A DNA stretch of 40,284 nt from Oligoflexia bacterium. GTDB taxonomy: Bacteria > Bdellovibrionota > Bdellovibrionia > Bdellovibrionales > UBA1609. Of the stretch, positions 1,367 to 36,763 are shown piece after piece. A program made the position numbers and the translations under genes. A model generated the notes under the pieces. The model did no database searches. It saw only the letters and a program-made list of their open reading frames with translations, and was not told the origin of the DNA. Position 1 is the stretch's first letter, and each line of letters opens with the position of its first letter. The stretch lies in assembly GCA_026914095.1 (NCBI GenBank), contig JAPPIY010000122.1, positions 1-40,284 on the forward strand. Reading direction: 5' to 3'.

Positions 1367-1488
1367 TATGCCAATCTTGTTTAAATTTTAGGCTCCAACT
1401 AGACTCCCGTTCCCTGCCCCCGTTTCCACGAGGGCAAGCTTTGCGGGAGCGGCAAAAGGGAGGAAAACTCAAACAAGATTGTTAGTAA
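1367..1488. repeat. MITE-like element, full copy (type A)
   Basis: Left terminus TATGCCAATCTTGTTTAAATTTT and right terminus GGAAAACTCAAACAAGATTGTTAGTAA are inverted. The core is a GC-rich hairpin: GACTCCCG...CCCCGTTTCCACGAGGGCAAGCTTTGCGGGAG. Confidence 0.75.
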
Positions 1489-1605
1489 GTCTCTGTAAAA
1501 TAAGATTTTTTCTCGCCCGTTCTTTTTAATAAGTGACCAAACAGCTTGTCATTGAGATCTATAAGTATTTTTAATAAGGCTCTTTTAAAAAATTTATAGA
1601 TTTTT

Positions 1606-2808
1606 TTAAAGCTTTTTCCCTTGATCAAAAGCAATTTCCCTCACAGGGGTTTGTAAGTTATAAGAGTTGGCCATAACAAAGCCATAAGCTCCCGTATCCG
1701 CAAGGGCCACAGATTCGCCTTGTTTTAATTCTGGCAGAAAAATGTCTTTGGCAAAGCAGTCCCCTGTTTCACAAATGGGTCCGACCACATCATATTTTTG
1801 CAAGCTCTGAGTTTGTTTGAAGGCTAAAATTCTATGCGGATCGGAATAAAGAGCCGTTCTTAAAAAATGATTCATCCCGCTGTTTAAAATCACAAACTGC
1901 TTTTTAGGGCTTTTTTTTATATATTCCACTGTGGCGCATAAAATTCCAAAGCGAGCTGTCAAAAAGCGCCCCGGCTCTGTGATCACCTGCCCATCAAAGT
2001 TTTTGAAAAGACTTTTTAAAGTTTTTCCAAACTCTTTGAGCTTTGCCTTTTCCTCTTCTAAATCTCCCTGCTGATAATTGACACCCAGCCCGCCTCCGAT
2101 GTCCAAGACTTTTAAGGGAAAGCCTTCTCGCTTTAACTGCTCATAAAGAGATTTTAAGTAATGAATGGCTTGAAAAAGAGGATTCAAGTCAAAAATTTGA
2201 GAGCCAATATGCATGCTTAAGCCTTGTAAATAGAGAGCCTGATTTTTTTTTATAAATGTTAAAATTTCTTTTAACTCCGACTCTTCCAAACCAAATTTGT
2301 GACCGCTTAAGCCTGTTTTTATATAGGGGTGAGAGGAAAAATTGACATTGGGATTGATTCGCAAAGCAAGGGGGGCTGTTTGATTTTTTTCTGAACAAAT
2401 TTGAGCTAATCTCTTTAGCTCCTCAAAACTTTCTACATTGATTTGAAAAAACTTTTGCTCCACAGCCATTTTTAACTCTTCCGCTGTTTTTCCCACACCT
2501 GAAAAAACAATATCTTGAGGCTGAAAACCGCAGTCTTGAGCTAAACGAGCCTCCCCCCCTGAAACCACATCCACGCCAGCCCCCTCTTTTTGAAAAGCTC
2601 TTAAAACCTGTTCATTAAAGTTGGATTTCATAGCAAAAAAAACCTTAGCTTGATTTTGCGTAGCTGATAAAAAAAACCGATACCATTCTCTAAGGCCTTG
2701 AATGTCATAGAGATAAAAAGGTGTTTTTTCTTGTTGGACAATTTCTTTTAAGAGAAGGGCTTGAGAGCCTTGTTTTAAAGCCAATTGGCCATTTTGATAG
2801 AGGAACAT
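1606..2808 (-). CDS. lysA: Diaminopimelate decarboxylase
   Basis: Fold-III PLP decarboxylase features: TPFYLYD near the N-terminus, FAMKSN (PLP lysine region), DIGGGLGV, and CETGD near the C-terminus. Start moved to the ATG at 2808 (MFLYQNGQL...) because the upstream 16 codons of the ORF are translated MITE sequence. Confidence 0.9.
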   Translation of the reverse strand: MFLYQNGQLALKQGSQALLLKEIVQQEKTPFYLYDIQGLREWYRFFLSATQNQAKVFFAMKSNFNEQVLRAFQKEGAGVDVVSGGEARLAQDCGFQPQDIVFSGVGKTAEELKMAVEQKFFQINVESFEELKRLAQICSEKNQTAPLALRINPNVNFSSHPYIKTGLSGHKFGLEESELKEILTFIKKNQALYLQGLSMHIGSQIFDLNPLFQAIHYLKSLYEQLKREGFPLKVLDIGGGLGVNYQQGDLEEEKAKLKEFGKTLKSLFKNFDGQVITEPGRFLTARFGILCATVEYIKKSPKKQFVILNSGMNHFLRTALYSDPHRILAFKQTQSLQKYDVVGPICETGDCFAKDIFLPELKQGESVALADTGAYGFVMANSYNLQTPVREIAFDQGKKL

Positions 2809-3085
2809 GATAGAGACCTTGTTTGAGTTTTTATCCCAGCTGTCATTTCCGCGCAAGCGGGAATCTCCCCAAATCTGGTCTCCTGAGAGCCGCTTTCACT
2901 TGTCATTCCCGCGCAAGCGGGAATCTCCCTAAAAAATTGTTTTATTGTTTAAATGTGATTTTTGTTCAAAAGCTTGCCAATCCACTTGCAAAAAGTCTAT
3001 CTGAGCTTTTAAGCCTCTCATCTTAAAGTTTTTGAAAAATAGAAACTATTGGGGATAGACTCAAATTTCAAACCCGGTTAGTAAA
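2809..3085. repeat. Composite repeat filling the whole lysC-lysA spacer
   Basis: Left terminus GATAGAGACCTTGTTTGAGTTTT at 2809-2832. Two 27-nt hairpins GTCATT(T/C)CCGCGCAAGCGGGAATCTCC at 2842-2868 and 2902-2928. Module TTTATTGTTTAAATGTGATTTTTGTTCAAAAGCTTGCCAATCCACTTGCAAA at 2941-2993. Right terminus CAAATTTCAAACCCGGTTAGTAAAG at about 3060-3085. Confidence 0.7.
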
Positions 3086-4283: not shown

Positions 4284-5530
4284 TCTTCTAAAAGCAAGAG
4301 GCTAGGCTCTTCAATTTTTTGGACAAAGCTTTTTAAAAATCGGACGGCTGTGGCGCCGTCTATAAAGCGATGATCACAAGTGATGGAAAAATTTATAAAG
4401 TCTGTTTCTTCAAATTCCCCTTTTTCATTTTTCACCGCCTGTTTAAAAATTTTATAAATTCCTAAAATAGCCATTTCAGGAGCTTGTATGATAGGGACGC
4501 CGTAAAGCCCTCCTAAACTTCCTAAGTTTGTGAGAGTGAGTCCCGCTCCTTTTAAATGCTCTCTTTCAATAGCTCCCGCTCTTGTTTTTTTAGAAAGCTC
4601 AAAAAGCTCTTTTACAATTTCTAAAAGGTTTTTGTTTTCCGCTTGCTTTAAGACAGGAACTAACAGACCGTTGGGGCTGTCCACAGCAAAACCAAAGTTT
4701 ATATGTTTTTTAAAAACAATTTCTTTTGTTTTTGTGTCATAGACTGAGTTAAAAATCGGAAACTGTTTGAGAACAGGAACCAAAGCTTTCATAAAAAAGG
4801 GCAGATAACCCATTTTCAGCCCTTGCTTTTCTAAACGGCTTTTCATTTCCGTCCTCAGTTTTACCAGATGCCCTGCTTGAGCCTGTTCAACAATAGTAAA
4901 AGGGGGAATCGTGGCTCGGGACAAGGTCATGCTTTCAAACATCAGCCTTTGAATGCCTTTTAAAGGGATTCTTTTTGATTCGGCAAAGTCAGAAAAGGAC
5001 GGGGTGGAATAAGAGGGAGCTTTCATTTTCTTTTTTATATAATTGAGAAGATCCTCTCTTTTAATTTCTCCTCTTTCTCCAGAGCCTTTCACTTCTGTTA
5101 AATCCAGTCCCAGCTCTTCAGCTAACTTTCTGCTGGAGGGGATGGCTAAAGGAAAAAATTTTTCTGGCGGGACATCAGCTTTTTCCGCTTTTCTTTTCTC
5201 GCTTTTTTCTTTAGGGGGAGGGCAGGAGCTGTCTGTTGATTCTTCAGCTTGTTTAGAGGAGAATTCTTTTTTATTTTCTATTGGACTCTCTTTTGTCTGA
5301 ACTGTAAAAAGCTCCGCGCCAACGGAAATAATGTCTCCCTCATTGACATTGACTTTTTCAATCACTCCTTCTATAAAGGAAGGCACCTCCATAGAGGCTT
5401 TGTCTGTCATCACCTCTAATAGAGCTTGATCCATAGCAATAGAATCCCCTTCTTTCACTTTGATTTTTAAAATTTCCCCTTCTGTAACTCCCTCTCCTAA
5501 ATCAGGAAGTGTGATTTTTTTAAGAGCCAT
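4280..5530 (-). CDS. Dihydrolipoamide acyltransferase (E2) of a 2-oxoacid dehydrogenase complex
   Basis: Lipoyl domain with MTDKASMEVPS. Peripheral subunit-binding segment SSRKLAEELGLDLTEVKGSGERGEI. Catalytic CDHRFIDGA. Substrate class (PDH or BCKDH-like) is not resolvable by eye. Confidence 0.88.
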   Translation of the reverse strand: MALKKITLPDLGEGVTEGEILKIKVKEGDSIAMDQALLEVMTDKASMEVPSFIEGVIEKVNVNEGDIISVGAELFTVQTKESPIENKKEFSSKQAEESTDSSCPPPKEKSEKRKAEKADVPPEKFFPLAIPSSRKLAEELGLDLTEVKGSGERGEIKREDLLNYIKKKMKAPSYSTPSFSDFAESKRIPLKGIQRLMFESMTLSRATIPPFTIVEQAQAGHLVKLRTEMKSRLEKQGLKMGYLPFFMKALVPVLKQFPIFNSVYDTKTKEIVFKKHINFGFAVDSPNGLLVPVLKQAENKNLLEIVKELFELSKKTRAGAIEREHLKGAGLTLTNLGSLGGLYGVPIIQAPEMAILGIYKIFKQAVKNEKGEFEETDFINFSITCDHRFIDGATAVRFLKSFVQKIEEPSLLLLEE

Positions 5531-6422: not shown

Positions 6423-6527
6423 ATAGCTTTATTTATAATAAGTTTCCTGTAAAAACAAAGAGAATTTTTTAGGCTTTGCGCTTGATTGCTTTTAGATTTT
6501 GAAACTATAACAAAATCCGTTTAAAAA

Positions 6528-6664
6528 GTAAAAATTTTCAATGGAAAGGCTTGAAATGAGTTCAGCCTCCGGTTGCGCGAGGACAGGCTTTGACCACAAA
6601 GCGACTTGCAGTCGCATTGTGGCAAAATAGAGGACTGAGAAAGCCTTTCCATTGAAAATTTTAC
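6528..6664. repeat. Long-hairpin element (type B)
   Basis: 22-bp perfect arms AAAATTTTCAATGGAAAGGCTT (6531-6552) and AAGCCTTTCCATTGAAAATTTT (6641-6662). Inner hairpin TTTGACCACAAAGCGACT-TGC-AGTCGCATTGTGGCAAAA. Confidence 0.8.
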
Positions 6665-6765
6665 TCATAAGCTTTTTATTGTTATCTCCAGAAGAAAGCT
6701 CAAAATTCAAAATAGAGAATCATAGTCTGCATGAATTTAAAAGCTGTAGGACCAGCCGAGCTGTT

Positions 6766-6881
6766 TATACATATCCTGTTTGAAAACTCGGGTTTCAGTT
6801 GGATTCCCGCCCCCGTGTTTCCACGAGGACAGGCTTTCGCGGGAATGACTGTGCGTTGAAATTCCAAACAGGATTCGTATA
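6766..6881. repeat. MITE-like element, full copy (type A) with TA flanks
   Basis: TA|TACATATCCTGTTTGAAAACTC ... GAAATTCCAAACAGGATTCGTA|TA. Core GGATTCCCGCCCCCGTGTTTCCACGAGGACAGGCTTTCGCGGGAATGAC. Confidence 0.85.
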
Positions 6882-6893: not shown

Positions 6894-8912
6894 TCAGTGG
6901 ATGAACTGTTTTTTACAAGCCTCTTCTTGATCCTCATTTTGATCTTTAAAATCTTCTAATCTAAGCTGTCCCTTTCGATATTTTTCCCACAGCTCTGGCC
7001 CTAAAGCTTGCTCTATTTGCTCTTCTTTTGACATTTTTAAAAAAACTTCCTGCGCTTTTTTTGAAGATTCTCTAAAAATTCTATCAACTGTACCTTCCAG
7101 GGATTCTTCTTGCGGCTCAGCTGATTGCTTTTGACTGGATAAGTAGCTGGCTAAGTGTTTAAAATTTTGTTCTGTTAAATAAGTTTCCCAGTCTAACAGC
7201 CATTTATGCCCATCAATTTCCAAAGTCAGGGTTGGCGGAAGGCCCATCTTCTTAGATTCATGCAAAAACCGGACTTCTTCTTTCAATCCAAAAAATAAGG
7301 CCCATTCTATAGGGGACAAACTTAAGGGAAAGTAGTAGCTTTCAAGCTTGGGCAGATTATCATAAATCAGTCTTAAGATTTTTTTAGCTGGCGGCTTGAA
7401 AGGATCTTCTAAATCCAAAGAGCCATAAGTGACAAAAGCTAAAGACAGAGGATCTAAACTATAGGATTGTATAATTTTGTTATGCTCTTGTATTTTTTGG
7501 GCTGTCTCGGACTGTCTTAGTTTTTTTAGGATGTATTCAACCGCTGGAGTAAAACTTTGCCTTATCGCTTCTAAAAGAGGATTGCTCAACAGATACACTT
7601 TGTCAAAATTGACATAAGTGAAATTAAGAAAAATCTCTTCTGTTTTTAAGCCTTCTTTAGAGTCTAAAGTTTTAAAAAAATTTTCATCTCTGTTAAAAAT
7701 AGCTTGTAAGATTAAACGGGTGTTTTTAGGAATTCCCCCCTCTTTAGAGCTAAACTCATGGAGCATTAAAAGCCTTGTTTTTTCAGCTTTCATTAAGTTT
7801 GCATGAAAATCATTAAAAAAACTCATTAAAACCGATCGAGACTCTTTTGTTTGATAGGGATCAAAAAAATTAAATAGGTTTTTTAAAAAAGCTTGAAAAT
7901 TAAGGTAAGTGATGACAGGGGAATGGGAGGCTTTTGGTTTTTCTTGAGCTATGTAATTCCATAAGTTACTGTAATCTTGAGCCATTACATGAGAGGGAAG
8001 CAAGCTGAGTTCGCGAAACTTTTTTATCAGAATTCGTCTAAGTTTTTTATCTGGCTGGGAAAAAGTAAAATGCAGGGGAGTTAAGCCTAAAGAGTTTTTA
8101 TCCTTTAAAAGACTTTTAGCCTGTGGGATCTGTAAAAAAGCTATAAGCCCTTTGGTGTGCCTCTTCCTCTCTTTTTTCTTTAAATTCTGGTTTAACAGAA
8201 TATAAGAGTATATAATATTATCCCCTGTAGCAAGCTTAAGTCCAAAGTCAATTTCTCTTTCCATCAGCCTTTCTATAATTTTGGGTTTTTTTGTAGCTAA
8301 CAGATGATGAGAGAGAACAACAACAGTTTCCTCCTTGTTTTTGAACTCCTCAGGAAGCATTGAGCTTTTTATCTCCTTAAAAGACAGGCTGTCATTGACA
8401 GAAAGAGAGAGGGCCTCCATTAATTCAAAAATTTTTTCATTGAGAGAGCCATAATAAATAAGATGCAAAACAGCTAGTATTTTATCGGCTTTTGTAAAAG
8501 AGTGCTCCTCCATAAATTTTTGAATCTCTTCGGGCTTGTCTTTTTTTAAGGCGGAAAATAACTCTTCAAGCTTTTGATTGGCTTTAAAATGTGTCTCTGG
8601 CTCAGTTGGAATGCCAGCCCCCTGTCTTTCTAAAAAAACATTGTAAAAATGATCTATGATAATCGTATGATCTTTTATGAGCTGATTTAAGAAGTCATAA
8701 AAGCTTTGATGTTTTAATTGAAGATTTTTCCATTCACTGATTTGGAAAAGAGGCGCGCTGTGTCTGGTTCTTTGCCAAAAAGCTTGGGAGAGGCTTTTTT
8801 GTAGGAGCCGTTCTTTGTTGGCTGGGTTGAAGTCAAACTCCCCAGCGGAGCTGTAACAGTGAAAAGCCAGCGCAAAAAGCGGTAAAACTATAAAAGACGA
8901 AAACTGAGGCAT
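6894..8912 (-). CDS. Large secreted protein of unknown function (672 aa), mostly helical, with one ankyrin-like GLTPLH motif
   Basis: Long uninterrupted ORF. Signal-like N-terminus MPQFSSFIVLPLFALAFHCYSSAG. Acidic, lysine-rich C-terminal tail. No catalytic motif recognised. Confidence 0.7.
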   Translation of the reverse strand: MPQFSSFIVLPLFALAFHCYSSAGEFDFNPANKERLLQKSLSQAFWQRTRHSAPLFQISEWKNLQLKHQSFYDFLNQLIKDHTIIIDHFYNVFLERQGAGIPTEPETHFKANQKLEELFSALKKDKPEEIQKFMEEHSFTKADKILAVLHLIYYGSLNEKIFELMEALSLSVNDSLSFKEIKSSMLPEEFKNKEETVVVLSHHLLATKKPKIIERLMEREIDFGLKLATGDNIIYSYILLNQNLKKKERKRHTKGLIAFLQIPQAKSLLKDKNSLGLTPLHFTFSQPDKKLRRILIKKFRELSLLPSHVMAQDYSNLWNYIAQEKPKASHSPVITYLNFQAFLKNLFNFFDPYQTKESRSVLMSFFNDFHANLMKAEKTRLLMLHEFSSKEGGIPKNTRLILQAIFNRDENFFKTLDSKEGLKTEEIFLNFTYVNFDKVYLLSNPLLEAIRQSFTPAVEYILKKLRQSETAQKIQEHNKIIQSYSLDPLSLAFVTYGSLDLEDPFKPPAKKILRLIYDNLPKLESYYFPLSLSPIEWALFFGLKEEVRFLHESKKMGLPPTLTLEIDGHKWLLDWETYLTEQNFKHLASYLSSQKQSAEPQEESLEGTVDRIFRESSKKAQEVFLKMSKEEQIEQALGPELWEKYRKGQLRLEDFKDQNEDQEEACKKQFIH

Positions 8913-9718: not shown

Positions 9719-9760
9719 AGGAATGACTGTCGTCCTGAAATTTCAAATCCGGTTCGTATA
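9719..9760. repeat. MITE right-end fragment
   Basis: AGGAATGACTGTCGTCCTGAAATTTCAAATCCGGTTCGTA|TA matches the core edge plus right terminus of the 6766-6881 copy. Confidence 0.65.
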
Positions 9761-9851: not shown

Positions 9852-9876
9852 CTCAATTTTAAATAGGATCCGTATA
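9852..9876. repeat. MITE right-terminus fragment
   Basis: CTCAATTTTAAATAGGATCCGTA|TA resembles the right terminus only. Confidence 0.45.
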
Positions 9877-12739: not shown

Positions 12740-12748
12740 ACACTGTGG

Positions 12749-12958
12749 AAACATTAAGTTTAAAAGTTAAAGAATTAAAGCTAAAAAACTCAGACATGCG
12801 TTTTGCCACAAAGCGTCTGTTCCTTACAAGTTTTATTCATAAGATGTTCCTTGAATTTTTCAAATCATATTTACACTTAAAGAACCTTGGCAGACGCATT
12901 GTGGTCAAATCCGAACTCGTTTTTAGCTTTAATTCTTTAACTTTTAAACTTAATGTTT
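12749..12958. repeat. Long-hairpin element with 39-bp perfect terminal inverted repeats (type B)
   Basis: AAACATTAAGTTTAAAAGTTAAAGAATTAAAGCTAAAAA (12749-12787) is the exact reverse complement of 12920-12958. Inner inverted pair GCGTTTTGCCACAAAGCGTCTG / CAGACGCATTGTGGTCAAA. Confidence 0.9.
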
Positions 12959-12983
12959 TTTTTGTATTTAAAGGAATGCAATT

Positions 12984-13271
12984 ATGAAACTTTCAGCGGA
13001 CAGACAAAGCTATCTCTCTCATAAGCTGGCCGATCGCCTATCGGAGAAAAACTTGGTTTCAGCTCCCTCTAAAGAGGTTTTATTTGAGCAGGTTAAATCC
13101 GCGGTCCATTTTTTTGTTCAAGAGTGGGAGGAAATGGAGCGGGAGGTTTTAAAAAAGATTGAATCCATTAAAAGAGGAATCCGCCCCGGCTCTTCCGAGT
13201 GGGATGTCTTATACAACCGTTTTTTAGAGGAAAGCTTTAGAAAAAAATCCCGTCTTTTTGTAAAAAAATAA
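12984..13271 (+). CDS. Small helical protein, DUF507-like
   Basis: 95 aa. The segment PGSSEWDVLYNRFLEESFRKK resembles the conserved C-terminal part of DUF507-family proteins as I recall them. Confidence 0.5.
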   Translation: MKLSADRQSYLSHKLADRLSEKNLVSAPSKEVLFEQVKSAVHFFVQEWEEMEREVLKKIESIKRGIRPGSSEWDVLYNRFLEESFRKKSRLFVKK

Positions 13272-13425
13272 AGTTTTGTCTCTTTGAAGTTTTTATGATC
13301 TATGAAATTTTTAAAAAATAATTTCAGATGCAAACTTGTTATAGAGTCGATCTTCAGTCATGCTAAGCTCCACTCGTATTGGTTTTAGGACTTTATACTT
13401 GCAGATTTTTATAACTTTATTGGGT

Positions 13426-13791
13426 TAAATACGCTCAAACTCTACAACAGTTCTGACTGTTGAACCGCAGATTTCATTATTATTTTTGGGATTCATGTAA
13501 AACAAAGCTTTATCACCCTGCGCTTTTTCCTACTGGCGAACTCAGGAAAAGACGGCTAATAAAGTTATTATTTTGGGAATTATATACATGACTCCTCAAA
13601 AAACTTTATTTTTAGCTTTAACTATTGAAAAACACTCTTTTTTTTCAAAGGAAACTTCAGATTTTCAAGTAAACTTCTGTCGGATAAAGGCAAGCTCTAA
13701 AGGCAGGATGCCCCTTTATTAAAAAGTGGAATCTTCCTTTGCAAAATCATAAGTTTTGACTCATTAGGTATATAATTCCCATTATTTTCAT
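13426..13791 (-). pseudogene. Decayed tandem paralog of the 13944..14477 gene
   Basis: The 3' remnant translates to ...AQGDKALFYMNPKNNNEICGSTVRTVVEFERI*, versus LLGDKLFFYSSSPDEGIYGFNCDSTARLIIEFDRI* in the live gene. The 5' remnant keeps AAGGAGA plus the ATG at 13791. The middle is lost and replaced by a TIR-bounded insert. An in-frame TAG lies upstream of the 3' remnant. Confidence 0.7.
13575..13780. repeat. About 206-bp insert with 13-bp perfect terminal inverted repeats (type C) inside the pseudogene
   Basis: GGGAATTATATAC at 13575-13587 and its exact complement GTATATAATTCCC at 13768-13780. Related GGRAWTATRTATTTA strings occur at 78-93, 1221-1236 and 33747-33764. Confidence 0.55.
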
Positions 13792-13943
13792 ACTATTCTC
13801 CTTTGTTGCTTGCTGTTATTTGTCAGCTGTTATTTGGAAAAAGTTTATATGAGATAAAAATAGCTGGATTCAAGTATGAATTTTAACGCAACACAATAGA
13901 GCGCAATCGACTCTGAAATTTTGTGGAGATTTATTGGAATTTG

Positions 13944-14621: not shown

Positions 14622-14776
14622 TAGACTGATCCTATTTGAAAGTTCAAGTTATAACTGGACTCCCGCGAAAGCGGGAGTGACAAGAAGCTTTGATGTTCAT
14701 ACAGGAAAGGAAACGCTGGACTCCCGCTTTCGCGGGAGTGACAGACAAGAGGAAAATTCAAACAAGCTTCAGTCTA
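14622..14776. repeat. MITE-like element, full copy with two hairpin cores
   Basis: TA|GACTGATCCTATTTGAAAGTTC ... GGAAAATTCAAACAAGCTTCAGTC|TA. Cores GGACTCCCGCGAAAGCGGGAGTGAC (14657) and GGACTCCCGCTTTCGCGGGAGTGAC (14718) lie 61 bp apart. Confidence 0.85.
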
Positions 14777-17205: not shown

Positions 17206-17405
17206 AATAAAAGTATCGGAAAATGATAAAAAAATATAAAATTTTTTTATTAAATAAAGGAATGCTATACAACATAACTTCTCAAAAAGTTTTATCTTTA
17301 GCTTTTTGAGCCAACTTTGGCGGGACAAGGGCTGATCTAAAGGCGGGGTTTTCCCACCAAAAGCTGGAATTTTTGGGCATTATAGACATGATTTTGCGTA
17401 AAAAA

Positions 17406-17598: not shown

Positions 17599-17615
17599 AG
17601 CTTTCTCGGCGCTGA

Positions 17616-18997: not shown

Positions 18998-19280
18998 TGG
19001 CGATTTTTGTTGTTTTAATTTTTTCAGATTTTGTTTGTTGTGATGATACCTGTCGCTGTGGTGACTTGTGATAAGATCAATTTACAAAGCTCTTTGGACT
19101 TACACCGATCCGGTTTGAATTTTTAGATCCCAACTAGACTCCCGCCCTCGCTTTCGCGAGGACAGGCTTTCGCGGGAGTGACAGAAATTAAAGCGGGAAA
19201 ACTCAAACAGGATCGGTATAAATTAAGCTTTATCAACAATTGGATGAGGGGAAATTGTCAGCTCTTGGCGATGAAGGGGC
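18998..19280 (+). pseudogene. Frameshifted 5' fragment of a paralog of the TadE/G-like gene, split by a MITE
   Basis: 18998-19102 aligns by eye with 19697-19809 of the live gene (for example VVTCDKINLQSSLDL versus MVTYDKINLQNSLDL), with a 1-nt insertion. Weaker similarity resumes at about 19228-19280 versus about 19862-19915. Confidence 0.65.
19101..19220. repeat. MITE-like element, full copy with TA flanks
   Basis: TA|CACCGATCCGGTTTGAATTTTT ... GGAAAACTCAAACAGGATCGGTA|TA. Core GACTCCCGCCCTCGCTTTCGCGAGGACAGGCTTTCGCGGGAGTGAC. Confidence 0.9.
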
Positions 19281-19325: not shown

Positions 19326-19505
19326 TAGACTGAATTCTGTTTGAAAATTCAGTCTAACAGTCCTTCCTGTAAGAGTTCAGTCATTCCCGTGAAAACGGGA
19401 ATCTCGGAAGGTTCAGAAACCGTCCTTCCCGCGAAAGTCTGCCCTCGCGAAAGCGGGGGTGGGAATCTCCAGAAAAAGCGGGAAAACTCAAACAGGATTA
19501 GTATA
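19326..19505. repeat. MITE-like element, long copy
   Basis: TA|GACTGAATTCTGTTTGAAAATTC ... GGAAAACTCAAACAGGATTAGTA|TA. Contains GTCATTCCCGTGAAAACGGGAATCTC and CCCGCGAAAGTCTGCCCTCGCGAAAGCGGGGGTGGGAATCTCC. Confidence 0.85.
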
Positions 19506-19643
19506 TAATACCAGAAAATTCAGTCGGTTTGTTTCCTTTTCTGTTGAAGGACAGAGCTTCCTCAAAAAGCCTGTCCTTATGAAAATAGGGGCGAAAGCGG
19601 GAATTTTTAGAAAAAACTTCAAAACTTAAACAGGATCGGTATA
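19506..19643. repeat. MITE-like element, left-degenerate copy abutting the TadE/G-like gene
   Basis: GAAAATTCAGTCGG... ends with AACTTCAAAACTTAAACAGGATCGGTA|TA. The right end lies 22 bp upstream of the TTG start at 19666. Confidence 0.7.
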
Positions 19644-23313: not shown

Positions 23314-23367
23314 CAGTGAATATATGGGTGTTTATCATAGTGGCTAAGTTAATTGCGCCTATAATTC

Positions 23368-23469
23368 CCGAAAATTCAGATTGTAACTAGACTCCTGCTC
23401 CTCGCTTTCGCGAGAATAGGCTTTCATGGGAGTGACAGAAGGGAGGAAAACTCAAACAGGCCTAGTATA
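23368..23469. repeat. MITE-like element, left-truncated
   Basis: GAAAATTCAGATTGTAACTAGACTCCTGCTCCTCGCTTTCGCGAGAATAGGCTTTCATGGGAGTGAC...GGAAAACTCAAACAGGCCTAGTA|TA. Confidence 0.75.
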
Positions 23470-23516: not shown

Positions 23517-24743
23517 TCATTTCTTTTTGATTTGGTATTCATAGACAGCCTTTTCATGCTCTTTATAAGTTTTTGAAAATTTGTGACTGCCGTCATTGCG
23601 GCTTACGAAATAAAAGTAATCTGACTTTTCTGGTTTAAAAACCGCTTGCAGGCTCTCTTTTCCGGGGTTGGCAATGGGATTGGGGGGCAGTCCCTTTACA
23701 ACATAAGTGTTATAGGGGGAATTAAATAAAATATCCGCTTTTCTAATGTTTTTTTCTATATCAAAGCCCCGAATGAGATAAAGAGAATATAAAATAGTGG
23801 GGTCGCTTTGCAGTTTCATCTTTTTTTTCAAGCGGTTGAAAAAAACACCGGCAATCAAAGGCCGCTCTTTGGCCTGCCCAGTTTCTTTCTCCACTAGACT
23901 GGCCAAAGTCACCACCTGATGACGGCTTAAATTCACTTCTAAAGGAGATTGAGAGATTTCTTGATAAATTTTTGCAAACTTTTGAGTCATGCTTGTAATC
24001 AAATCTTCCGCCGGCAGGTATTTTGTCAGCTGATAGGTGTCAGGGAAGAGATAGCCTTCTAAAGATTCCAAATCTTGCTTTATCAGCTTTTTTGTAAAGT
24101 TTTTATTCCAAACCAGATTTAAAAATTGCTCTGTCTCAGAGTAGTTGTGGTTTTTTAAAGTTTCCGCCATTTCATAATGGTTGAATCCTTCAGGAAAAGA
24201 GACTTTAAAGACACGGACTTTGCCTTCCTTAAAATGATTAAAAATTTCCCACACGCTCCTATCAGAAGATATTTCATACTCTCCCTGTCTGAGAGCGGGG
24301 CGGCCATAGAGCAAAATGAGAGCTTTAAAAAGTTTTTCAGAAGAGATGATTTGTTTTTCTTTCAGCTCTCCCGCCAACTGATAAAAGGTTTTGCCAGGGG
24401 GGACATCAATTGTATGGATCAGGTTTGAGTTTTTCATTTCATTGTTCTGTTTTTCTTCGGAAGACGGAGCTCTCGCGAAAGCTTGCCCTGGTGGAAACAC
24501 GGGGGCAAGCTTTCGCGGGAATGAAGAGAAATCGGGAGAACTCAAACAGGATGGGTATAGGCTGTTTAAGTTTTGAAGTTTTTTATGGAGATTCCCGCCC
24601 CCGTGTTTCCACCAGGGCAAGCTTTCGCGGGAAGGACTGTCATACTGAAACTTCAAGCCAGAGGAGTATAAAACAGTCTCTGTTTTAGAAAGGAGAGAGC
24701 CAAAACAAAAGCTTATCAAAAGAAAGAATCCAAAAATTTTCAC
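23517..24743 (-). CDS. mltG: Endolytic murein transglycosylase (YceG-like) carrying an in-frame repeat-derived insert
   Basis: YceG core: FPEGF, LASLVEKE, FFNRL, LQSDPT, YNTY, GLPP.PI.NPG. The GTG at 24743 is preceded by GGGAGA with 7-nt spacing and directly follows the astD stop. N-terminal TM MKIFGFFLLISFCFGSLL. Confidence 0.88.
   Translation of the reverse strand: MKIFGFFLLISFCFGSLLSKTETVLYSSGLKFQYDSPSRESLPWWKHGGGNLHKKLQNLNSLYPSCLSSPDFSSFPRKLAPVFPPGQAFARAPSSEEKQNNEMKNSNLIHTIDVPPGKTFYQLAGELKEKQIISSEKLFKALILLYGRPALRQGEYEISSDRSVWEIFNHFKEGKVRVFKVSFPEGFNHYEMAETLKNHNYSETEQFLNLVWNKNFTKKLIKQDLESLEGYLFPDTYQLTKYLPAEDLITSMTQKFAKIYQEISQSPLEVNLSRHQVVTLASLVEKETGQAKERPLIAGVFFNRLKKKMKLQSDPTILYSLYLIRGFDIEKNIRKADILFNSPYNTYVVKGLPPNPIANPGKESLQAVFKPEKSDYFYFVSRNDGSHKFSKTYKEHEKAVYEYQIKKK
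24462..24670. repeat. Two tandem partial MITE copies lying inside the mltG reading frame
   Basis: CGCGAAAGCTTGCCCTGGTGGAAACACGGGGGCAAGCTTTCGCGGGAATGA...GAGAACTCAAACAGGATGGGTA|TA, then GATTCCCGCCCCCGTGTTTCCACCAGGGCAAGCTTTCGCGGGAAGGACTG...CAAGCCAGAGGAGTA|TA. Confidence 0.85.
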
Positions 24744-27779: not shown

Positions 27780-27877
27780 AACAATAAAGCTAACAAAAGA
27801 ATTTTATTTAAACAATATCTCTATAAAAAAAACTTTATCTTTGAGGATTTTTACGAGTCGGCGATGAAAAAATTTGC

Positions 27878-28172
27878 TTTATTGTTTAAATGTGATTTTT
27901 GTTCAAAAGCTTGCAAATCAGCTTGCAAAGTGAGTTTGGTTTTTATCACAATATTGTAAATGTTCAGTCATTCCCGCGAAAGCGGGAATCTCCAGACAAA
28001 ACTTCAAAAGTTCAAACCCGATCCGCATCACTTGCTTTCTTGTAAATACTATCCTTTTATACTGATCGTATTTGAAAACTCAGCGCTACGCCTTCTTCAA
28101 AAACTTAAAACCGGAATTTTCAAACACGATCGGTATAAGATCATAAATTCACAAATCATTTCAATAGTTTAG
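27878..28172. repeat. Repeat cassette Y upstream of ileS, with a nested 76-bp mini-MITE at 28060-28135
   Basis: Module TTTATTGTTTAAATGTGATTTTTGTTCAAAAGCTTGCAAATCAGCTTGCAAA (27878-27929). Hairpin GTCATTCCCGCGAAAGCGGGAATCTCC (27967-27993). Mini-MITE TA|TACTGATCGTATTTGAAAACTC...TTTTCAAACACGATCGGTA|TA. Tail AAATTCACAAATCATTTCAATAGTTTAG (28145-28172). Confidence 0.8.
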
Positions 28173-28362
28173 GACTTCTTCAGAACCGACTGATTAGTTT
28201 TGTATTTATTACAAATCATTTGGACTGCGCTTCCTTAAATTTCAGTCCTAAAAGGCTTTCCTGACACTTCTGAGCTAAGGCTCTTAAAGCGCCAATGATC
28301 CTACCGCAAGACTTTTAAAAAAGGCGTTGTTCCTTTTTGTTTTTTCAGATATAAAAAGTCCT

Positions 28363-31107: not shown

Positions 31108-31257
31108 TATATGGATCCTATTTGAAATTTCAACATGACTTGTCCCCAGAAGACGGAACTTCTGCAAAAGCTTGCTTTCATAGAAGCGGAGGCATAGTCA
31201 TTCTCGCAAAAGCGGGAAGCTCCAGAAAAGACTCAAAATTCAAACAAGGTTGGTATA
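31108..31257. repeat. MITE-like element, full copy
   Basis: TATATGGATCCTATTTGAAATTTC ... AAAATTCAAACAAGGTTGGTA|TA. Followed by the 2x10-bp direct repeat GCAACAGGGA (31261-31280). Confidence 0.8.
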
Positions 31258-31289: not shown

Positions 31290-32816
31290 ATGAATAAAAA
31301 AATCTTGAGCTTTTTAAAAAATCAAGGGGGGGGGTATTTTTACTCCTTACTCCTTATTGTTTTTGTTTTTCTAAAATGGAAGAGTTTGCATATTCTGCCT
31401 TGGTCTGATGAGAACTTCTATCCTTATATTACTGAAAAAGAGTGGGTTTTTTTTCTTCCCTGGAATTACCGTCCTGAGAATTTTCAAGGTCATCCGGCAG
31501 GACAGCCTTTTATTCTCTGGCTGGCTTTTAAACTGTTTGGATTAAAAGTCTTCACAGCCAGGATGACAGCTTTAAGTTGGTCTTTGCTGTGTTTGTTCAG
31601 CTTATATAAAATGACATCCGCGCTTTTTCAAGACAAGCAGACAGCTTTTCTCTCAATGGCTTTTGCTATAAGCCTCCCTTTGTTTTGGTTTCAATCCACT
31701 GTGTTATTAGCGCATATTCCCTTAATGGCCTGTGGTTTTGGAGCTGTTTATGCTTTTCTTTCTGGAAAATATAAATCCCTTCTTTTGTTTTCCCTCGGTT
31801 TGGCTGTTGTCAGAGAATCCGCTTTAGCCTTCTTCCTGCTGTTTATTTTCTATGGCCTTTTCAATCCCTCTTACCGAAAAGCTCTTTACTATATGATTCC
31901 CTCCCTTCTCTTGTTTCTTTCCCATTTTTTGGTTTCTTTTGTAAGAACCGGCCATTGGTCCACTCACCCTCATGCCCTAGGGACATTGCCTCATAATCCA
32001 AACCCGGAGTTCTTTAACTTTTCTCTTTTTTTTGAAAGATCCCATCACTTTTTCAAAGATTTTTTTTATCAGTTTCCTTATGTATTTTGGTGGCTCTTTC
32101 TATTCTCTCTTGGTTTTTTTATTTTTTCAAAATTAAGACAACGAGTTTTTATTTCAAGTTTAAAACAACTATTCAATTATAGGGAAAAAGTTTTTATTCC
32201 CTTAACTGTCAGCGCTTTATTTTTTTGCTTTTTTATCAGTTATCCTGAATATGAATTTAGAAACTTTTTTCCTATTCTTATTATTTTTATTCCTCTAAGC
32301 CTTCACTTTATGATAAAAACCCTCCCTTTGTTCAAAAAGGCCTTAATGTTTGTTTTCTGGCTCCTGCTTATTCAAAATGTATTTCCAAAAAGCAGTCCTT
32401 TTATTGTTAAGTTGGGAGCTGGCGTGAAATACAGCGGGTCTCAAAGGGAGGAGGAGGAAAGGCAGAGAGTCTTAAAGGCTCAAACCTTTGTGGTTTATTT
32501 AGAAGACAAATGGGGCAAACCAGTCAGAGAGTTAGAAAAATGGGTCTATATGCCTTATCCTTACGATCAAATTATGAGCGGCCATGAATATGGGTATGTA
32601 AAAAACTCTTACAGTGTGGATCATTGGCGTTTTCTGGAGGAGCCGGAAAGATACGGAATTGTTGCCATGGCTAAAAGAAAAATATCCCGTCTTCCCTATA
32701 ATGAGCTTGTTTATGAATATTTACAGGGGTCTAGTTCTTTTGTTGAACAGCCTCTCCCTCCTTCCCTGAATGATTTTGTTTTATTTCTTCATAAGGATGT
32801 GCTGGACTGGAAATAA
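31290..32816 (+). CDS. Polytopic membrane protein, GT-C fold (ArnT/PMT-like, family 39-type) glycosyltransferase candidate
   Basis: ATG at 31290 preceded by GGGAG with 8-nt spacing. About 10 or more hydrophobic segments. WSDENFYPY in the first loop resembles the GT-C acidic motif. C-terminal soluble domain. Confidence 0.55.
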   Translation: MNKKILSFLKNQGGGYFYSLLLIVFVFLKWKSLHILPWSDENFYPYITEKEWVFFLPWNYRPENFQGHPAGQPFILWLAFKLFGLKVFTARMTALSWSLLCLFSLYKMTSALFQDKQTAFLSMAFAISLPLFWFQSTVLLAHIPLMACGFGAVYAFLSGKYKSLLLFSLGLAVVRESALAFFLLFIFYGLFNPSYRKALYYMIPSLLLFLSHFLVSFVRTGHWSTHPHALGTLPHNPNPEFFNFSLFFERSHHFFKDFFYQFPYVFWWLFLFSLGFFIFSKLRQRVFISSLKQLFNYREKVFIPLTVSALFFCFFISYPEYEFRNFFPILIIFIPLSLHFMIKTLPLFKKALMFVFWLLLIQNVFPKSSPFIVKLGAGVKYSGSQREEEERQRVLKAQTFVVYLEDKWGKPVRELEKWVYMPYPYDQIMSGHEYGYVKNSYSVDHWRFLEEPERYGIVAMAKRKISRLPYNELVYEYLQGSSSFVEQPLPPSLNDFVLFLHKDVLDWK

Positions 32817-32820
32817 CAGC

Positions 32821-32920
32821 GGACAGATTCTTCCCTCCAAGCGCGGGAGGACGCAAAGGGAATTGTGAGAGAGATACTGTGGACAAATTCCTCCCTCCAA
32901 GCTTGAGAGGACAGCGAAGG
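32821..32920. repeat. Two direct repeats with an exact 60-bp period
   Basis: GGACAGATTCTTCCCTCCAAGCGCGGGAGGACGCAAAGGG (32821) versus GGACAAATTCCTCCCTCCAAGCTTGAGAGGACAGCGAAGG (32881). The second ends in the hairpin GGACAGC-GAAG-GCTGTCC. Confidence 0.7.
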
Positions 32921-32988
32921 CTGTCCCAAAAACTTAATTTTTCGTTACAAGTATAAAGGGGGACAGCTTTGTTTGCGGCAATATGAAA

Positions 32989-33132
32989 TAGACTGATCCT
33001 GTTTGAAAATTTTTGTTTGAATGAGATTCCTGTCCCTGTCCCCGTTTCCACGAGGACAGGCTTTTGCGGGAGTTCCGGCTGTTGGAATCAGCCTGAACAA
33101 AGAAGAGGGAAAATTCAAGCAGGATTGGTATA
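32989..33132. repeat. MITE-like element, full copy
   Basis: TA|GACTGATCCTGTTTGAAAATTTT ... GGAAAATTCAAGCAGGATTGGTA|TA. Core GATTCCTGTCCCTGTCCCCGTTTCCACGAGGACAGGCTTTTGCGGGAG. Confidence 0.85.
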
Positions 33133-33163
33133 AAAGCCTTGTTTTCAAATCTTGCTTGGTATA
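33133..33163. repeat. Extra right-terminus fragment directly upstream of lspA
   Basis: GTTTTCAAATCTTGCTTGGTA|TA ends 11 bp before the lspA ATG. Confidence 0.5.
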
Positions 33164-33173
33164 AATAAAAGTC

Positions 33174-33671
33174 ATGTCAAACTCTTTTATAAAATATTTA
33201 TCGGTTACTTTGATCACTGCTTGGATTTTGTGTTTAGACCAAGCAACTAAAATTTTTATTCACACTCAATTTCCAAGACAGACATCAAAAGCCATTATAG
33301 AAGGCTTTTTTAATATTTCTTATGTCACCAACTCTGGAGGGGCTTTTGGGCTTTTTAATGACAGCCCTGATTGGATTCGCTTTATCTTGTTTTTATTGTT
33401 TCCTTTAGTTTGCGTCTATTTTATTTTTAAGCTGTTACAGGAGACAAACAGCCGTTTTCAAATTTTAGCTTTGAGCTTTATTTTAGGGGGAGCTTTTGGG
33501 AATTATCTGGATAGGGTCAGGCTGGGTTATGTTGTGGATTTTATTGATTGGCATATCAAGGGCTGGCATTGGCCGACTTTCAATATAGCGGATTCCTTTA
33601 TTGTTATGGGTGTAGCCCTTCTCAGCGCTCTTTATTTTAAAGATTATCAAGAGTCTAAAAAATCGGCTTAA
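33174..33671 (+). CDS. lspA: Lipoprotein signal peptidase (signal peptidase II)
   Basis: DQATKIF, NSGGAFG, GNYLDR, FNIADS, and four TM segments. Confidence 0.93.
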   Translation: MSNSFIKYLSVTLITAWILCLDQATKIFIHTQFPRQTSKAIIEGFFNISYVTNSGGAFGLFNDSPDWIRFILFLLFPLVCVYFIFKLLQETNSRFQILALSFILGGAFGNYLDRVRLGYVVDFIDWHIKGWHWPTFNIADSFIVMGVALLSALYFKDYQESKKSA

Positions 33672-33723: not shown

Positions 33724-33897
33724 TATGCAATCCTGTTTGAAATTTCGGGAACTATATATTTAATACAGCATAAAATTCTTTGGGTTTTATTTTTATGTTT
33801 CATAAAAGCTTTGAAAACTCCTTATATCTAAAGGCTTCCATGACTTGTTTGCTGTTTTAAGTCTGTAATTCCAGAAATTCCAAACACGGCTAGTATA
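33724..33897. repeat. MITE-like element with the same termini but an AT-rich, different core
   Basis: TA|TGCAATCCTGTTTGAAATTTC ... GAAATTCCAAACACGGCTAGTA|TA. The core starts GGGAACTATATATTTAAT (type C-like string) and lacks the GC hairpin. Confidence 0.7.
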
Positions 33898-33949: not shown

Positions 33950-34711
33950 GTGAGATTAAATAAGTTTTTAGCTCAATGGGCAGGGCTTTCCCGCCGGCAG
34001 GCCGATCATAAAATCAAACAGGGGCATGTTTTTGTAAATGATCAAAAAGTGTCTCAGCTGTCTGTCTTTGTTGATCCTGAAAAAGACCAGGTGCGAGTGC
34101 AAAAAAAACTAATTTCCACAAAATCACAGCCATTTCTTTATCTGATGTTTAACAAACCCACTCAGGTTTTAAGCGCAAGGAAAGATTCCAAAGGCAGGCC
34201 TGTTGTGATGGATTACATTCCTAAATATAAAGATCGGCTTTTTTTAGTGGGGCGATTGGATTGGGATTCCGAAGGCTTATTGCTTTTAACCAATAATGGC
34301 CAATTTTCTGAAAAGATTTTAAATCCTAAAAATAAAATTTCTAAAACTTATTTGGTGAAAGTGAGAGGCAGGCCTTCAGAGGCGCATTTAAAAAAGCTTT
34401 TGCGGGGAGTCAGCACTCCTGTTGGCAAAAGGAAAGCCTTATTTGTCCAAAAGTATCCCTCCCAAAAAGGAACAAAGACCGTTTGGATTAAAATTATTTT
34501 AAGTGAAGGGAAAAAAAGGCAGATTCGCTTGATGTTTGATAAATTGGGCTTTCCTGTTCAAAAACTAAGACGGACAGCGATCGGGCGATTGAAGATGAAT
34601 AAACTGGCTAAAGGGCATTTTATCTCTTTAAGAGAAAAAGATTTAGAAAAAGTTTTTTTGTGGCCAAAGGAGCTGAAGAGATTTTCTTTGCAGAGTAAGC
34701 AATCTGTTTAA
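33950..34711 (+). CDS. RsuA/RluB-family rRNA pseudouridine synthase
   Basis: N-terminal S4 domain (RLNKFLAQWAGLSRRQADHKIKQGHVFVND), catalytic GRLDWDSEGLLLLTNNG, and KTYLVKV. GTG start. Confidence 0.88.
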   Translation: MRLNKFLAQWAGLSRRQADHKIKQGHVFVNDQKVSQLSVFVDPEKDQVRVQKKLISTKSQPFLYLMFNKPTQVLSARKDSKGRPVVMDYIPKYKDRLFLVGRLDWDSEGLLLLTNNGQFSEKILNPKNKISKTYLVKVRGRPSEAHLKKLLRGVSTPVGKRKALFVQKYPSQKGTKTVWIKIILSEGKKRQIRLMFDKLGFPVQKLRRTAIGRLKMNKLAKGHFISLREKDLEKVFLWPKELKRFSLQSKQSV

Positions 34712-34803
34712 CTCAACTGATCTTGTTTGAATTTTCAGGTTAGGGCTAGACTTCTGCTTTTGCAGAAGTGACAAAAAGGAGGAAAACTCAAATCGATCAG
34801 ATA
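34709..34803. repeat. Short MITE-like element overlapping the pseudouridine synthase stop codon
   Basis: TAACTCAACTGATCTTGTTTGAATTTTC ... GGAAAACTCAAATCGATCAGA|TA. Core GACTTCTGCTTTTGCAGAAGTGAC. Confidence 0.75.
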
Positions 34804-34841
34804 TAATTCCCAAAGGAATAAACTTTCATTGTAAATAAAAA

Positions 34842-35438: not shown

Positions 35439-35500
35439 AATAGACCTCCCTTTATGATTTATTTATAAACCCATCGGACTTTTTTGGCAAAGACTTTAAT

Positions 35501-36400
35501 TTAAAAATTGACGCCAAATAAAAGGCCGATATTTATTAAATCTCCATAAAAACGGTAGCCTTTAACCTCTGGGCGATTGGGAAACTGGAGCCTCTGCAAT
35601 AGAGTTTGATTGCTGTTGGGCGGGGGCACAGGAGGGAAATTAAGTTGTGAAAGGTCCTCATTTTCATGCTGTAGGACAGTGTAAAGATAGCTGAATTCAA
35701 AGCCTATAAAGCTTTGTTGGATGAGAGCCAGCTCAAAACCAAAGCCCAGTTTTACTCCTGCCGCATTGTAAGATTTAACGGCTTTCCTTTCAAGAGAAGA
35801 CGGCCTGTTGGAGTCATTGGCGGGCGGAACGGTCTGTTGAGGGGTTTGCGGATTTTGTTGAGCTATGGGGCTGGGCGGGGGTGGAAGAGCGGATTTAATA
35901 TTGAGCCAAAAAGGGCCAAAAATCACATAAGGGCTGAAAAAATCCTTATCTTTATTGAGATACTGCCTGTTCCAATAATATTTTAAGTCTAAGCCATAAT
36001 GCGAAAAAGGAAAAGCTGTGTTATAAAGGCTGTTGTAATGACCTGTGGGAAAAACCCCGCTCAATTGAATGGCAAAGCGAAGGTCTAGAAAAAAGGCGGC
36101 ATTTGCCCCTACAAAGGCAGCATCTCCATAAATTTGCCGGATGTTAAAGGTGATAGCCTCATAGCCTCCGGACAAAGCGACAGAAAGAGATCGTCCATAA
36201 TGAAAGAAATTGATGCTCTCCTCTTCTGTAACATCATCTTGAAACTCTCCATAATCAATAAAAGGATCAAAGGCGCTGGCGTTTTTAGCTAGTAAAAAGG
36301 GAGCGCTTTTAGAAGTTGAAAAAATTTGGTTTGTTTCGCTCCTTTCAGCCTGACTTTGCCCCATCCAGAAACAAATAAAAAAAGAAAGTAGAAATCTCAT
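35501..36400 (-). CDS. Outer-membrane beta-barrel protein with proline/glutamine-rich inserts (299 aa)
   Basis: Signal peptide MRFLLSFFICFWMGQSQA and C-terminal ...GLLFGVNF. Internal PPPPSPIAQQNPQTPQQTVPPAN and NFPPVPPPNSNQ stretches. Confidence 0.65.
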   Translation of the reverse strand: MRFLLSFFICFWMGQSQAERSETNQIFSTSKSAPFLLAKNASAFDPFIDYGEFQDDVTEEESINFFHYGRSLSVALSGGYEAITFNIRQIYGDAAFVGANAAFFLDLRFAIQLSGVFPTGHYNSLYNTAFPFSHYGLDLKYYWNRQYLNKDKDFFSPYVIFGPFWLNIKSALPPPPSPIAQQNPQTPQQTVPPANDSNRPSSLERKAVKSYNAAGVKLGFGFELALIQQSFIGFEFSYLYTVLQHENEDLSQLNFPPVPPPNSNQTLLQRLQFPNRPEVKGYRFYGDLINIGLLFGVNF

Positions 36401-36554
36401 TTGGTATATTTTATCAGATTTTTTGTAAATAAGCTGTATTTTTTGCTCTTTTCCTTTTTTAAAAATTCAAGATTAAAAAAACAAAACGAAAGTCCAGCTA
36501 GGCTTATTGAGTTTGTGAAAGGATACAAAAATTCTCAAAAAATTTAAGAAGGCT

Positions 36555-36763
36555 TATACTGATCTTGTTTAAGATTTGGAGGCTCTTTTGAAAGATGACA
36601 ACAAGAGATTTAAGAGTAAAAATTTTCAATTCCAAGACTTAAAATTCAGTCCTGCGTTTTGCCACAAAACGGTCTTTGGCCGCCTTGCGCTCAAAGCCTG
36701 CCCTCGCGAAAGCGGGGGCGGGAATCTAGTTAAAGCCAGAGAATTCACAAACAGTGGCCTATA
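36555..36763. repeat. Composite MITE-like element
   Basis: TA|TACTGATCTTGTTTAAGATTT ... AAAATTCAGTCCTGCGTTTTGCCACAAAACGG ... GCCTGCCCTCGCGAAAGCGGGGGCGGGAATC ... GAATTCACAAACAGTGGCCTA|TA. Confidence 0.7.

Follow-up and report, generated by a model that had tools for sequence, protein, structure and literature searches.

The stretch of DNA analysed here (the window) is 40,284 nucleotides long and corresponds to bases 8785-49068 of a 49-kb metagenome scaffold (ENA, ROBB21-1_SAMN13943214 scaffold_1131), through which the organism was studied. The genes of the window, identified with Pfam, are ordinary chromosomal ones: lysA, aspartokinase, lipA, smpB, clpP, clpX and mreB, together with genes for a Tad-like protein (tad), yceG/mltG, astA, a class I tRNA synthetase, lspA, ppx and gatB. 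There are no tRNA genes within the window, and its G+C content is about 39%. The closest named relatives by MreB are metagenome-assembled genomes (MAGs) of Bdellovibrionales, Oligoflexia and Pseudobdellovibrionaceae. The nearest MreB relatives, with 83-94% identity, are encoded on contigs of 1.86-2.28 Mb. Judging by its sequence, the host is an uncultivated, small-genome member of Bdellovibrionota. Many spacers between these genes contain members of a single family of short repeats with inverted ends. [quoted passage not shown]

The consensus terminus of the family is 23 nt long, TATACYGATCCTGTTTGARWTTT, and was scored by an exhaustive Hamming scan. The window contains 15 such termini at <=3 mismatches (0.00 expected from 100 dinucleotide shuffles) and 32 at <=6 mismatches (0-4 in 20 shuffles). 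An unbiased repeat search of the window recovered the right end in 10 copies (families D1/D3) and the left end in 7 copies (families D4/D7), while the GC-rich cores of the elements came out as separate repeat families D2, D5, D8 and D9. In total there are about 17 elements of 80-280 bp and three end fragments. The termini are inverted repeats of 23-28 nt, and intact ends read TATAC...GTATA. A preliminary description of the window, made from its letters, had reported a repeat family with inverted, TA-flanked termini. All the positions it listed do hold sequences as described, the unbiased search finds the same families, and the intact ends are as claimed. Most of the borders it gave stand as well; three (23368, 34709 and 24462-24670) were corrected. 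The elements were also said to fill nearly every intergenic spacer. They are indeed dense (of the 19 intergenic spacers that exceed about 90 bp, 13 contain them), but this wording is somewhat overstated. Together the listed pieces amount to 2439 bp, or about 6% of the window; MITE sequence takes up roughly a third of its intergenic DNA. The scaffold extends 8.8 kb upstream of the window, and two to three further termini are situated there.

The copies lie in both orientations, vary in module content and are often truncated. They differ from each other by 8-40%, and many termini are damaged; therefore the burst that produced them must be old. The GC cores are 61-92% alike between window copies. 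Whole elements are predicted to fold as long hairpins, with z-scores of about -3 to -9. As the source is a metagenome scaffold, an assembly artefact or a purely local duplication might be suspected. The divergence of the copies and their unequal module content contradict this, and so do the termini found upstream in the scaffold and the presence of the family in independent assemblies, namely on many contigs of at least eight other MAGs and in several metagenomes. We regard an artefact as hardly credible.

The evidence for the origin of the elements comes from a metagenome scan with the same terminus. Among the loci fetched from other MAGs and metagenomes (L-numbered below), L091 (1986-3103) and L118 (2409-3526) contain identical 1118-bp insertion sequences (ISs) in different genomic contexts, with TA on both flanks. 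Its product is a protein of 341 aa in which DDE_3 (E 2e-31), HTH_33 and HTH_23 domains were identified, together with the LPPYSPNLNPIERLW motif, which is typical of IS630 transposases. Homologues of this transposase are annotated as "IS630 family transposase" in Pseudobacteriovorax and Oligoflexales MAGs. The left inverted repeat (IRL) of the IS, TATACCGATCCTGTTTGAGTTTTCC, matches positions 19195-19220(-) of the window at 25 of 26 nt. Such termini also bound homologous ISs in Bdellovibrionota MAGs (L177-L183), those of Pseudobacteriovorax/Oligoflexales included. In particular, a homologous 1117-bp IS bounded by the same termini occurs on 17 contigs, and a 2.28-Mb relative (the contig whose MreB is 83% identical to that of the window) has three identical IS copies with these termini. 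The flanks of the 17-contig IS and of the copies in the 2.28-Mb relative have nothing in common beyond TA. The termini of three diverged IS lineages can be aligned with the MITE ends. Copies in the window have one IRL-like end (GAGTTTTCC) and one end that resembles the right inverted repeat (GAAAWTTCAGG), as expected of internal-deletion derivatives of an IS. The IS630/Tc1-mariner-type origin proposed in the preliminary description is thus supported by full-length ISs (L091, L118, L177-L183).

Several other candidates were considered and rejected. At L020 947-2584, the supposed autonomous copy consists of no more than an IS1595-like N-terminal fragment and a Lys-rich ORF (open reading frame), and L028 2412-5786 contains ABC-transporter genes instead. 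The similarities in L040/L075 and L066/L079 are due to repetitive proteins and tandem repeats. A 672-aa orphan ORF of the window (6894-8912), which adjoins a MITE, matches nothing in Pfam or NCBIfam and does not resemble a transposase. The element at L065 1838-2893 encodes an IS481-like transposase and is not bounded by the termini in question. Genome OZ220490.1 carries both this IS481-like (rve) transposase and IS1595-like N-terminal fragments (L020 1310-1531, L023 5033-5227); therefore other IS families coexist with the MITEs there.

The terminus scan took one genome per species. It returned at least 77 loci, of which about 40 were listed from at least eight Bdellovibrionales/Bdellovibrionia MAGs; the rest are chance singletons in unrelated taxa. 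The commonest form in these MAGs is a near-perfect palindrome of 72-74 bp, TATACTGATCCTGTTTGAAATTTCACGG-loop-CCTGAATTTTCAAACAGGATCAGTATA, and the window copy 28058-28137 is the local equivalent of this 73-bp form. A blastn comparison of the 73-bp consensus with plasmid and phage collections gave chance-level matches only. The gene order of the window from aspartokinase to tRNA synthetase (about 28 kb) is kept in L082 and L083, whose MreB is 90% identical to that of the window; L002 (MreB 94% identical) is partially syntenic. No MITE copies were found at <=6 mismatches outside coding sequence in L082, L083 and L002, orthologous spacers included; in L003 (MreB 89% identical) a single 92-bp copy and a solo end were detected. 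The mreB-tad spacer is 979 bp long in the window versus 134 bp in L082. Thus the presence/absence polymorphism expected of insertions is seen between relatives, at the level of genera and not between strains. The genes of the window that are missing from L082 and L083 (6894-8912, 22138-23313 and about 31290-33671) are each bordered by MITE copies, so the MITEs mark the edges of gene-content differences from these relatives. The extra genes are the secreted-looking 672-aa orphan, a DUF4143/AAA_14 ATPase, and a PMT_2 glycosyltransferase with lspA.

All intact MITE and IS copies are flanked by TA...TA and have no longer shared flank. One junction can be read against coding sequence. The 5' coding part of tad has a decayed duplicate at 18997-19102 (about 73-80% identity with 19696-19809), which breaks off precisely at the left edge of the 19101 copy. 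The junction is GGACT-TA-CACCGATCC, while the intact tad gene reads GGACTTAGCC; therefore the TA of the host was kept. The duplicate has an internal stop and a 9-nt deletion and lies upstream of a three-MITE cluster. This arrangement suggests that either a disrupted gene was later restored by a duplication, or the insertion hit a partial duplicate arranged in tandem. Every junction seen fits a duplicated TA target, although none proves it. Two further features of the ends were observed. The flanks prefer T before TA (about 7 of 10) and A after TA (about 11 of 13), i.e., a TTAA-like target. Every terminal repeat holds GATC (TATACYGATCC), for instance at 19198-19220, and Dam-type methylation in the host, if any, could make the ends methylation-sensitive, as in IS10 and IS50.

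Taken together, we consider it very probable that the elements are MITEs derived from, and moved in trans by, an IS630-family IS of Bdellovibrionota. The transposase would recognise the terminal inverted repeat of about 25 nt, TA followed by TACYGATCCTGTTTGA..., and excise the element, which would then be pasted into a TA dinucleotide duplicated on both sides. Such TA-targeted insertion would explain the TATAC...GTATA ends as well as the siting in AT-rich spacers and on TAA stops. The minimal element would be a near-palindrome of 73-80 bp built from two IS ends. In the lineage of the organism, subfamilies that had acquired GC-rich hairpin modules would have multiplied, and their copies would have decayed afterwards. 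Our inference is that the copies seen here were moved by this transposase family, that their target, duplicated on insertion, is TA, and that as passengers most of them are neutral. If they are neutral, their effects would be incidental: transcript hairpins, outward promoter-like ends, donated stops, and one tolerated in-frame insert in mltG.

Several points weigh against this reading. Neither Pfam, NCBIfam nor tblastn with the cognate transposase found a transposase in the window, as the preliminary description had said, and tblastn found no transposase or remnant either across the 49-kb scaffold or among MITE-bearing loci of relatives totalling about 300 kb. The best-matching ISs (L091, L118) sit on contigs with no assigned taxonomy. 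Current mobility is doubtful because the copies here are old and damaged. Alignments of the ppx-downstream, mreB-tad, RNase H-tRNA synthetase and smpB-clpP spacers with L002, L003, L082 and L083 gave no base-precise empty site, the intergenic DNA of these relatives being too diverged to place junctions; therefore a TA duplication is indistinguishable from a TATA duplication or from none. Finally, the GC cores have no counterpart inside the IS, and thus IS deletion alone does not explain their origin. A different transposase, e.g., one of the IS5 type as suggested for Correia elements, could be proposed instead, with the match to IS630 ends being a coincidence. Some IS5-subgroup elements also make 2-4-bp duplications, and the lack of a cognate transposase in the scaffold would fit. 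However, a coincidence would have to cover a match of 25 of 26 nt and termini common to three diverged IS lineages, and the IS481-like and IS1595-like sequences of relatives (L065; L020, L023) are not bounded by these termini. We find this alternative very improbable. The individual copies in the window are listed in Table 1.

Table 1. Copies and fragments of the MITE family in the window (mismatches are counted against the consensus terminus; repeat families are those of the unbiased search)
Position	Strand	Element	Termini, repeats, folding
1367..1488		MITE, 122 bp; long GC hairpin core, degenerate right end	termini 1367(+), 4 mismatches, and 1464-1486(-), 5 mismatches; fold z-score -2.9
2809..3085		composite: degenerate terminus, two dRS3-like hairpins (2841-2873, 2901-2933), promoter-like D10 module (2931-2992), degenerate terminus	repeats D8, D10
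6766..6881		MITE, 116 bp; long GC hairpin core	termini with 4 and 3 mismatches; folds end to end, z-score -4.0
9719..9760		solo end fragment	terminus 9738-9760(-), 6 mismatches; repeat families D3/D6
9852..9876		solo end fragment	terminus 9854-9876(-), 4 mismatches
14622..14776		MITE, 155 bp; two simple hairpins, 14659-14678 (GAAA loop) and 14720-14739 (TTTC loop)	
19101..19220	-	MITE, 120 bp; left end abuts the tad 5' pseudo-duplicate	terminus with 0 mismatches; right end equals IRL of the IS630-family IS at 25/26 nt; fold z-score -5.4
19326..19505	-	MITE, 180 bp; hairpin cores inverted relative to the 19101 copy	repeat I1
19506..19643		MITE; left end truncated, right end forms TTCAAA-16-TATAAT 21 nt upstream of the tad start	
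23360..23469	-	MITE; left terminus partly deleted (start previously given as 23368)	D4 copy 23357-23398; terminus 23447-23469(-), 3 mismatches
24462..24670		two truncated copies, abutting near 24560, inside the mltG/yceG ORF	translation and alignment with three relatives
27961..28030		dRS3-like hairpin and degenerate terminus	
28058..28137		minimal MITE, 80 bp, without GC hairpin	termini with 4 and 2 mismatches; fold z-score -5.8
31108..31257		MITE, 150 bp; between class I tRNA-synthetase gene and PMT_2 gene (upstream of the latter)	
32989..33132	-	MITE, 144 bp	termini with 2 and 2 mismatches; fold z-score -5.7
33133..33163		solo end fragment; abuts the 32989..33132 copy	
33724..33897		MITE, 174 bp; AT-rich unrelated interior, no GC hairpin	termini with 6 and 5 mismatches
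34709..34805	-	MITE with compensated hairpin variant GACTTCTGC-TTTT-GCAGAAGTGAC	fold z-score -3.7
36555..36763		MITE, 209 bp; family-B palindromic module (36634-36700) and GC hairpin	repeats D18, I3

GC hairpins are present in 15 of the 17 copies in the window versus only one or two of 24 paired copies in relatives. They were mapped by a stem-loop search; counts of the TCCCGC/GCGGGA hexamers are too unspecific. The simple hairpin unit is GTCA-YTCCCGC-GAAA-GCGGGAR-TC, and the long form of the core has a second hairpin nested in the loop. A fully symmetric version of the long core is found at 24471-24506/24597-24632 (repeat I5). In a set of 14 natural units (window plus four relatives), the stem is paired in 99% of cells, five of the eight stem pairs show compensatory (two-sided) changes, and the flanks GTCA and TC are invariant. 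The cores had been likened to REP or to dRS3-type palindromes of Neisseria. The dRS3 pattern, ATTCCC(N8)GGGAAT (PMC3898611), is matched exactly by three hairpins of the window and with one mismatch by a fourth (0.19 expected); the other hairpins are compensated variants such as ACTCCC...GGGAGT. The likeness is thus literal for three or, with one mismatch, four hairpins, and it is a likeness of pattern.

Each hairpin of the window lies inside or against an element bounded by the terminal inverted repeats. In relatives, hairpins without these termini flank the palindromic module of another repeat, family B (L066 4430-4700), stand beside tandem repeats (L063 4334) or form an array (L079 700-930). 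The orientation of the hairpins relative to the termini flips between the window copies 19101 and 19326 (repeat I1). The preliminary description spoke of a hybrid architecture. Both the termini and the cores are present as it said, but since relatives have MITEs without hairpins and hairpins without termini, the elements are better read as a mosaic of independent modules. By their sequences, the hairpin core is a module separate from the MITE termini.

It is possible, although we do not think it probable, that the GC hairpins are an independent REP- or dRS3-like unit, mobile or prone to recombination, which is served by another enzyme (such as a RAYT-type Y1 transposase or a Piv/IS110-type recombinase) and has repeatedly invaded the MITEs rather than been captured once. 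The lack of hairpins in 22 of the 24 paired copies of relatives, the free hairpins in L063, L066 and L079, and the changed orientation between copies 19101 and 19326 all argue for this. In addition, the compensated stem pairs together with the invariant asymmetric flanks are as would be expected of a recognised hairpin, and the pattern equals that of dRS3 (PMC3898611). On the other hand, seven copies have a common subterminal-plus-core arrangement (D4, D6), which fits amplification as one unit, and all window hairpins are confined to the elements or their edges. Pfam detected no RAYT (Y1 transposase) gene in the window, and the fetched loci showed neither a RAYT- nor an IS110-type gene. Moreover, independent hairpins would account for the cores only and not for the termini.

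A bolder conjecture, which we hold to be rather unlikely, is that the dRS3-like hairpin is an independently mobile or recombinogenic unit both in Neisseria and in small-genome Bdellovibrionota (by descent or convergence), that the MITE serves as its landing pad or vehicle, and that the composites are partly domesticated. If this were true, domesticated composites would be a source of promoters, stop codons, hairpins in transcripts and in-frame linker peptides for a reduced genome, and the lineage would be a second, independent example of NIME/RPE-style genome tinkering.

The elements touch coding sequences at several points. The mltG/yceG ORF (23517-24743, minus strand) stays open across 24462-24670, where two partial copies are read through in frame. 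The predicted translation contains an insert of 62-70 residues between the N-terminal hydrophobic (signal/anchor) peptide and the conserved IDVPPGKTF catalytic domain; the alignment with mltG of three relatives shows that they have no such insert. The stop codon of aspartokinase (3078-3080) falls inside the terminus 3063-3085, and the TAA stop of a pseudouridine synthase gene supplies the first TA of the 34709 copy. The 31108 copy begins 3 nt after the stop of the class I tRNA-synthetase gene (28327-31104). Its left end carries an outward sigma-70-like site, TTGAAA-16-TATAAT, at 31133-31106; another one, TTCAAA-16-TATAAT at 19618-19645, ends 21 nt upstream of the tad start codon. Both rank among the top promoter-like matches of 18 kb. 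Effects on genes through outward promoters and hairpins are plausible if Correia elements are taken as a guide. The MITE family also accounts for several spurious ORFs and over-extended start codons in the annotation of the scaffold.

The strong predicted hairpins, the compensatory changes in the stems and the two top promoter-like matches facing outward at element ends might be taken to mean that the elements are not insertions but a functional family conserved as structured RNA or as regulatory DNA, serving for instance as terminators, promoters or stabilisers of mRNA. However, promoter-like sites are not enriched overall (35 versus 31 expected), nor are terminator-like sites (30 versus 23), and no T-run follows the hairpins. 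The structured-RNA possibility, raised already in the preliminary description, was checked against Rfam: no family matches at gathering thresholds over the window, and there is nothing credible at E<=1 in two sub-regions. Both orientations, variable modules and truncations do not suit a conserved functional family either, nor does the absence of elements from the orthologous spacers of syntenic relatives or the position of one element within a coding region. The ends, in turn, are common to complete transposase-bearing ISs. Therefore a functional family is improbable.

Among known repeats, the family is by sequence neither Correia, RPE nor any Rfam family. The Correia repeat is TATAGYGGATTAACAAAAA, and only the leading TATA is common to it and the termini of the elements studied here. 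These termini, TATACYGATCCTGTTTGA, are not the Neisseria-specific 26-bp repeat. The closest analogue in origin is RUP, which was linked to IS630-Spn1 by matching terminal inverted repeats (PMC2229807). The likeness includes short non-coding elements with termini matching an IS630-family IS, an insertion site, TA, that is probable for the elements here, intergenic dispersal and the same argument for mobilisation in trans (PMC2229807). RUP differs in sequence and in host phylum; its length is a uniform 107 bp and all its frames contain stop codons, whereas the elements here range from 73 to about 280 bp, have interchangeable passenger modules and include one pair that is read through in frame.

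Correia elements (NEMIS/CREE) are 100-155 bp long, with inverted repeats of about 26 bp that start with TATA. They lack a transposase gene of their own, duplicate TA and account for about 2% of the genome; their outward transcription signals and transcript hairpins are documented (PMC3898611, PMC2229807). The elements described here appear to work in the same way and occupy about 6% of the window. Unlike Correia elements, whose transposase is uncertain and whose terminal sequence is unrelated, they have a matching IS630-family IS. The 20-bp dRS3 unit flanks RS units (PMC3898611). Of the hairpins found here, three match it exactly and a fourth with one mismatch; in relatives the hairpins flank other modules in mosaic intergenic arrays, as in NIMEs (PMC3898611), but they belong to another phylum, are mostly nested inside a MITE and are likened by pattern. 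Neither a link to a filamentous-phage integrase nor a recombinase was seen in the fetched loci. RPEs are palindromic repeats tolerated as in-frame inserts in conserved protein genes of a small Rickettsia genome (PMC2229807). The predicted insert in the conserved gene mltG/yceG is of this kind; the differences are that there is a single in-frame case in 40 kb here, that the sequences are unrelated and that RPE has no identified parent IS.

In size, lack of coding capacity, termini matching those of an IS and presence/absence between relatives, the elements are like other IS630-derived MITEs. They form a new family of an ordinary type of selfish DNA: an IS630-derived MITE like RUP that works like Correia elements. 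Its notable features are the unusual density, the identified parent IS and the mosaic with dRS3-like hairpins. In the library of papers searched, no description of MITEs in Bdellovibrio-like bacteria was found, and the present case records a heavy MITE load in an uncultivated lineage of Bdellovibrionales, whose close relatives have genomes of about 1.9-2.3 Mb. Bacterial MITEs rarely have an identified parent transposase; as one is identified here, the family is experimentally tractable. Syntenic sister lineages free of the MITE offer a natural comparison of how bursts reshape spacers, gene ends and a cell-wall enzyme.

Other repeats of the window and of the fetched loci are worth describing. 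Family B is unrelated to the MITE termini. Its 210-bp copy at 12749-12958 has perfect 39-bp inverted repeats (AAACATTAAGTTTAAAAGTTAAAGAATTAAAGCTAAAAA), which suggest a recent insertion, and lies between two DUF507 genes that overlap or abut in L003, L082 and L083; the ORF 12745-12987 called there is probably spurious. The family-B core is an imperfect palindrome, TTCAGaCatGCGTTTTGCCACAAAGC...GCTTTGTGnTCAAAGCCGAACT, present in the window at 12778-12814, 17433-17500 and 36634-36700 and elsewhere in L023 (6684-6904), L038 (about 6480-6695), L066 (about 4540-4640) and L115 (1500-1815). In several genomes it occurs alone, inside TATAC-bounded MITEs or flanked by GC hairpins. A search of the sub-region 17200-17650 gave no Rfam match to it at E<=1. 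The spacer 13272-13943 (672 bp) has no called gene, no MITE terminus and no Rfam match at the gathering threshold.

A 62-nt module, GTGATTTTTGTTCAAAAGCTTGCcAATCnaCTTGCAAA (D10 at 2931-2992), recurs at 17382-17443 and 27868-27929, the first and third copies being 92% identical. It always stands beside a MITE or hairpin module in a spacer, and its sequence may represent a promoter or binding site. Two kinds of repeats in relatives are unrelated to the MITE. Short nucleotide repeats within ORFs of L066 (4788-5126) and L079 (6249-6911) encode NHQSPIT or QQSAISN peptide repeats. A long tandem array with a unit of about 14 nt, GTTTTAGTTGTGAG, occupies a spacer in L083 (about 1800-2370).

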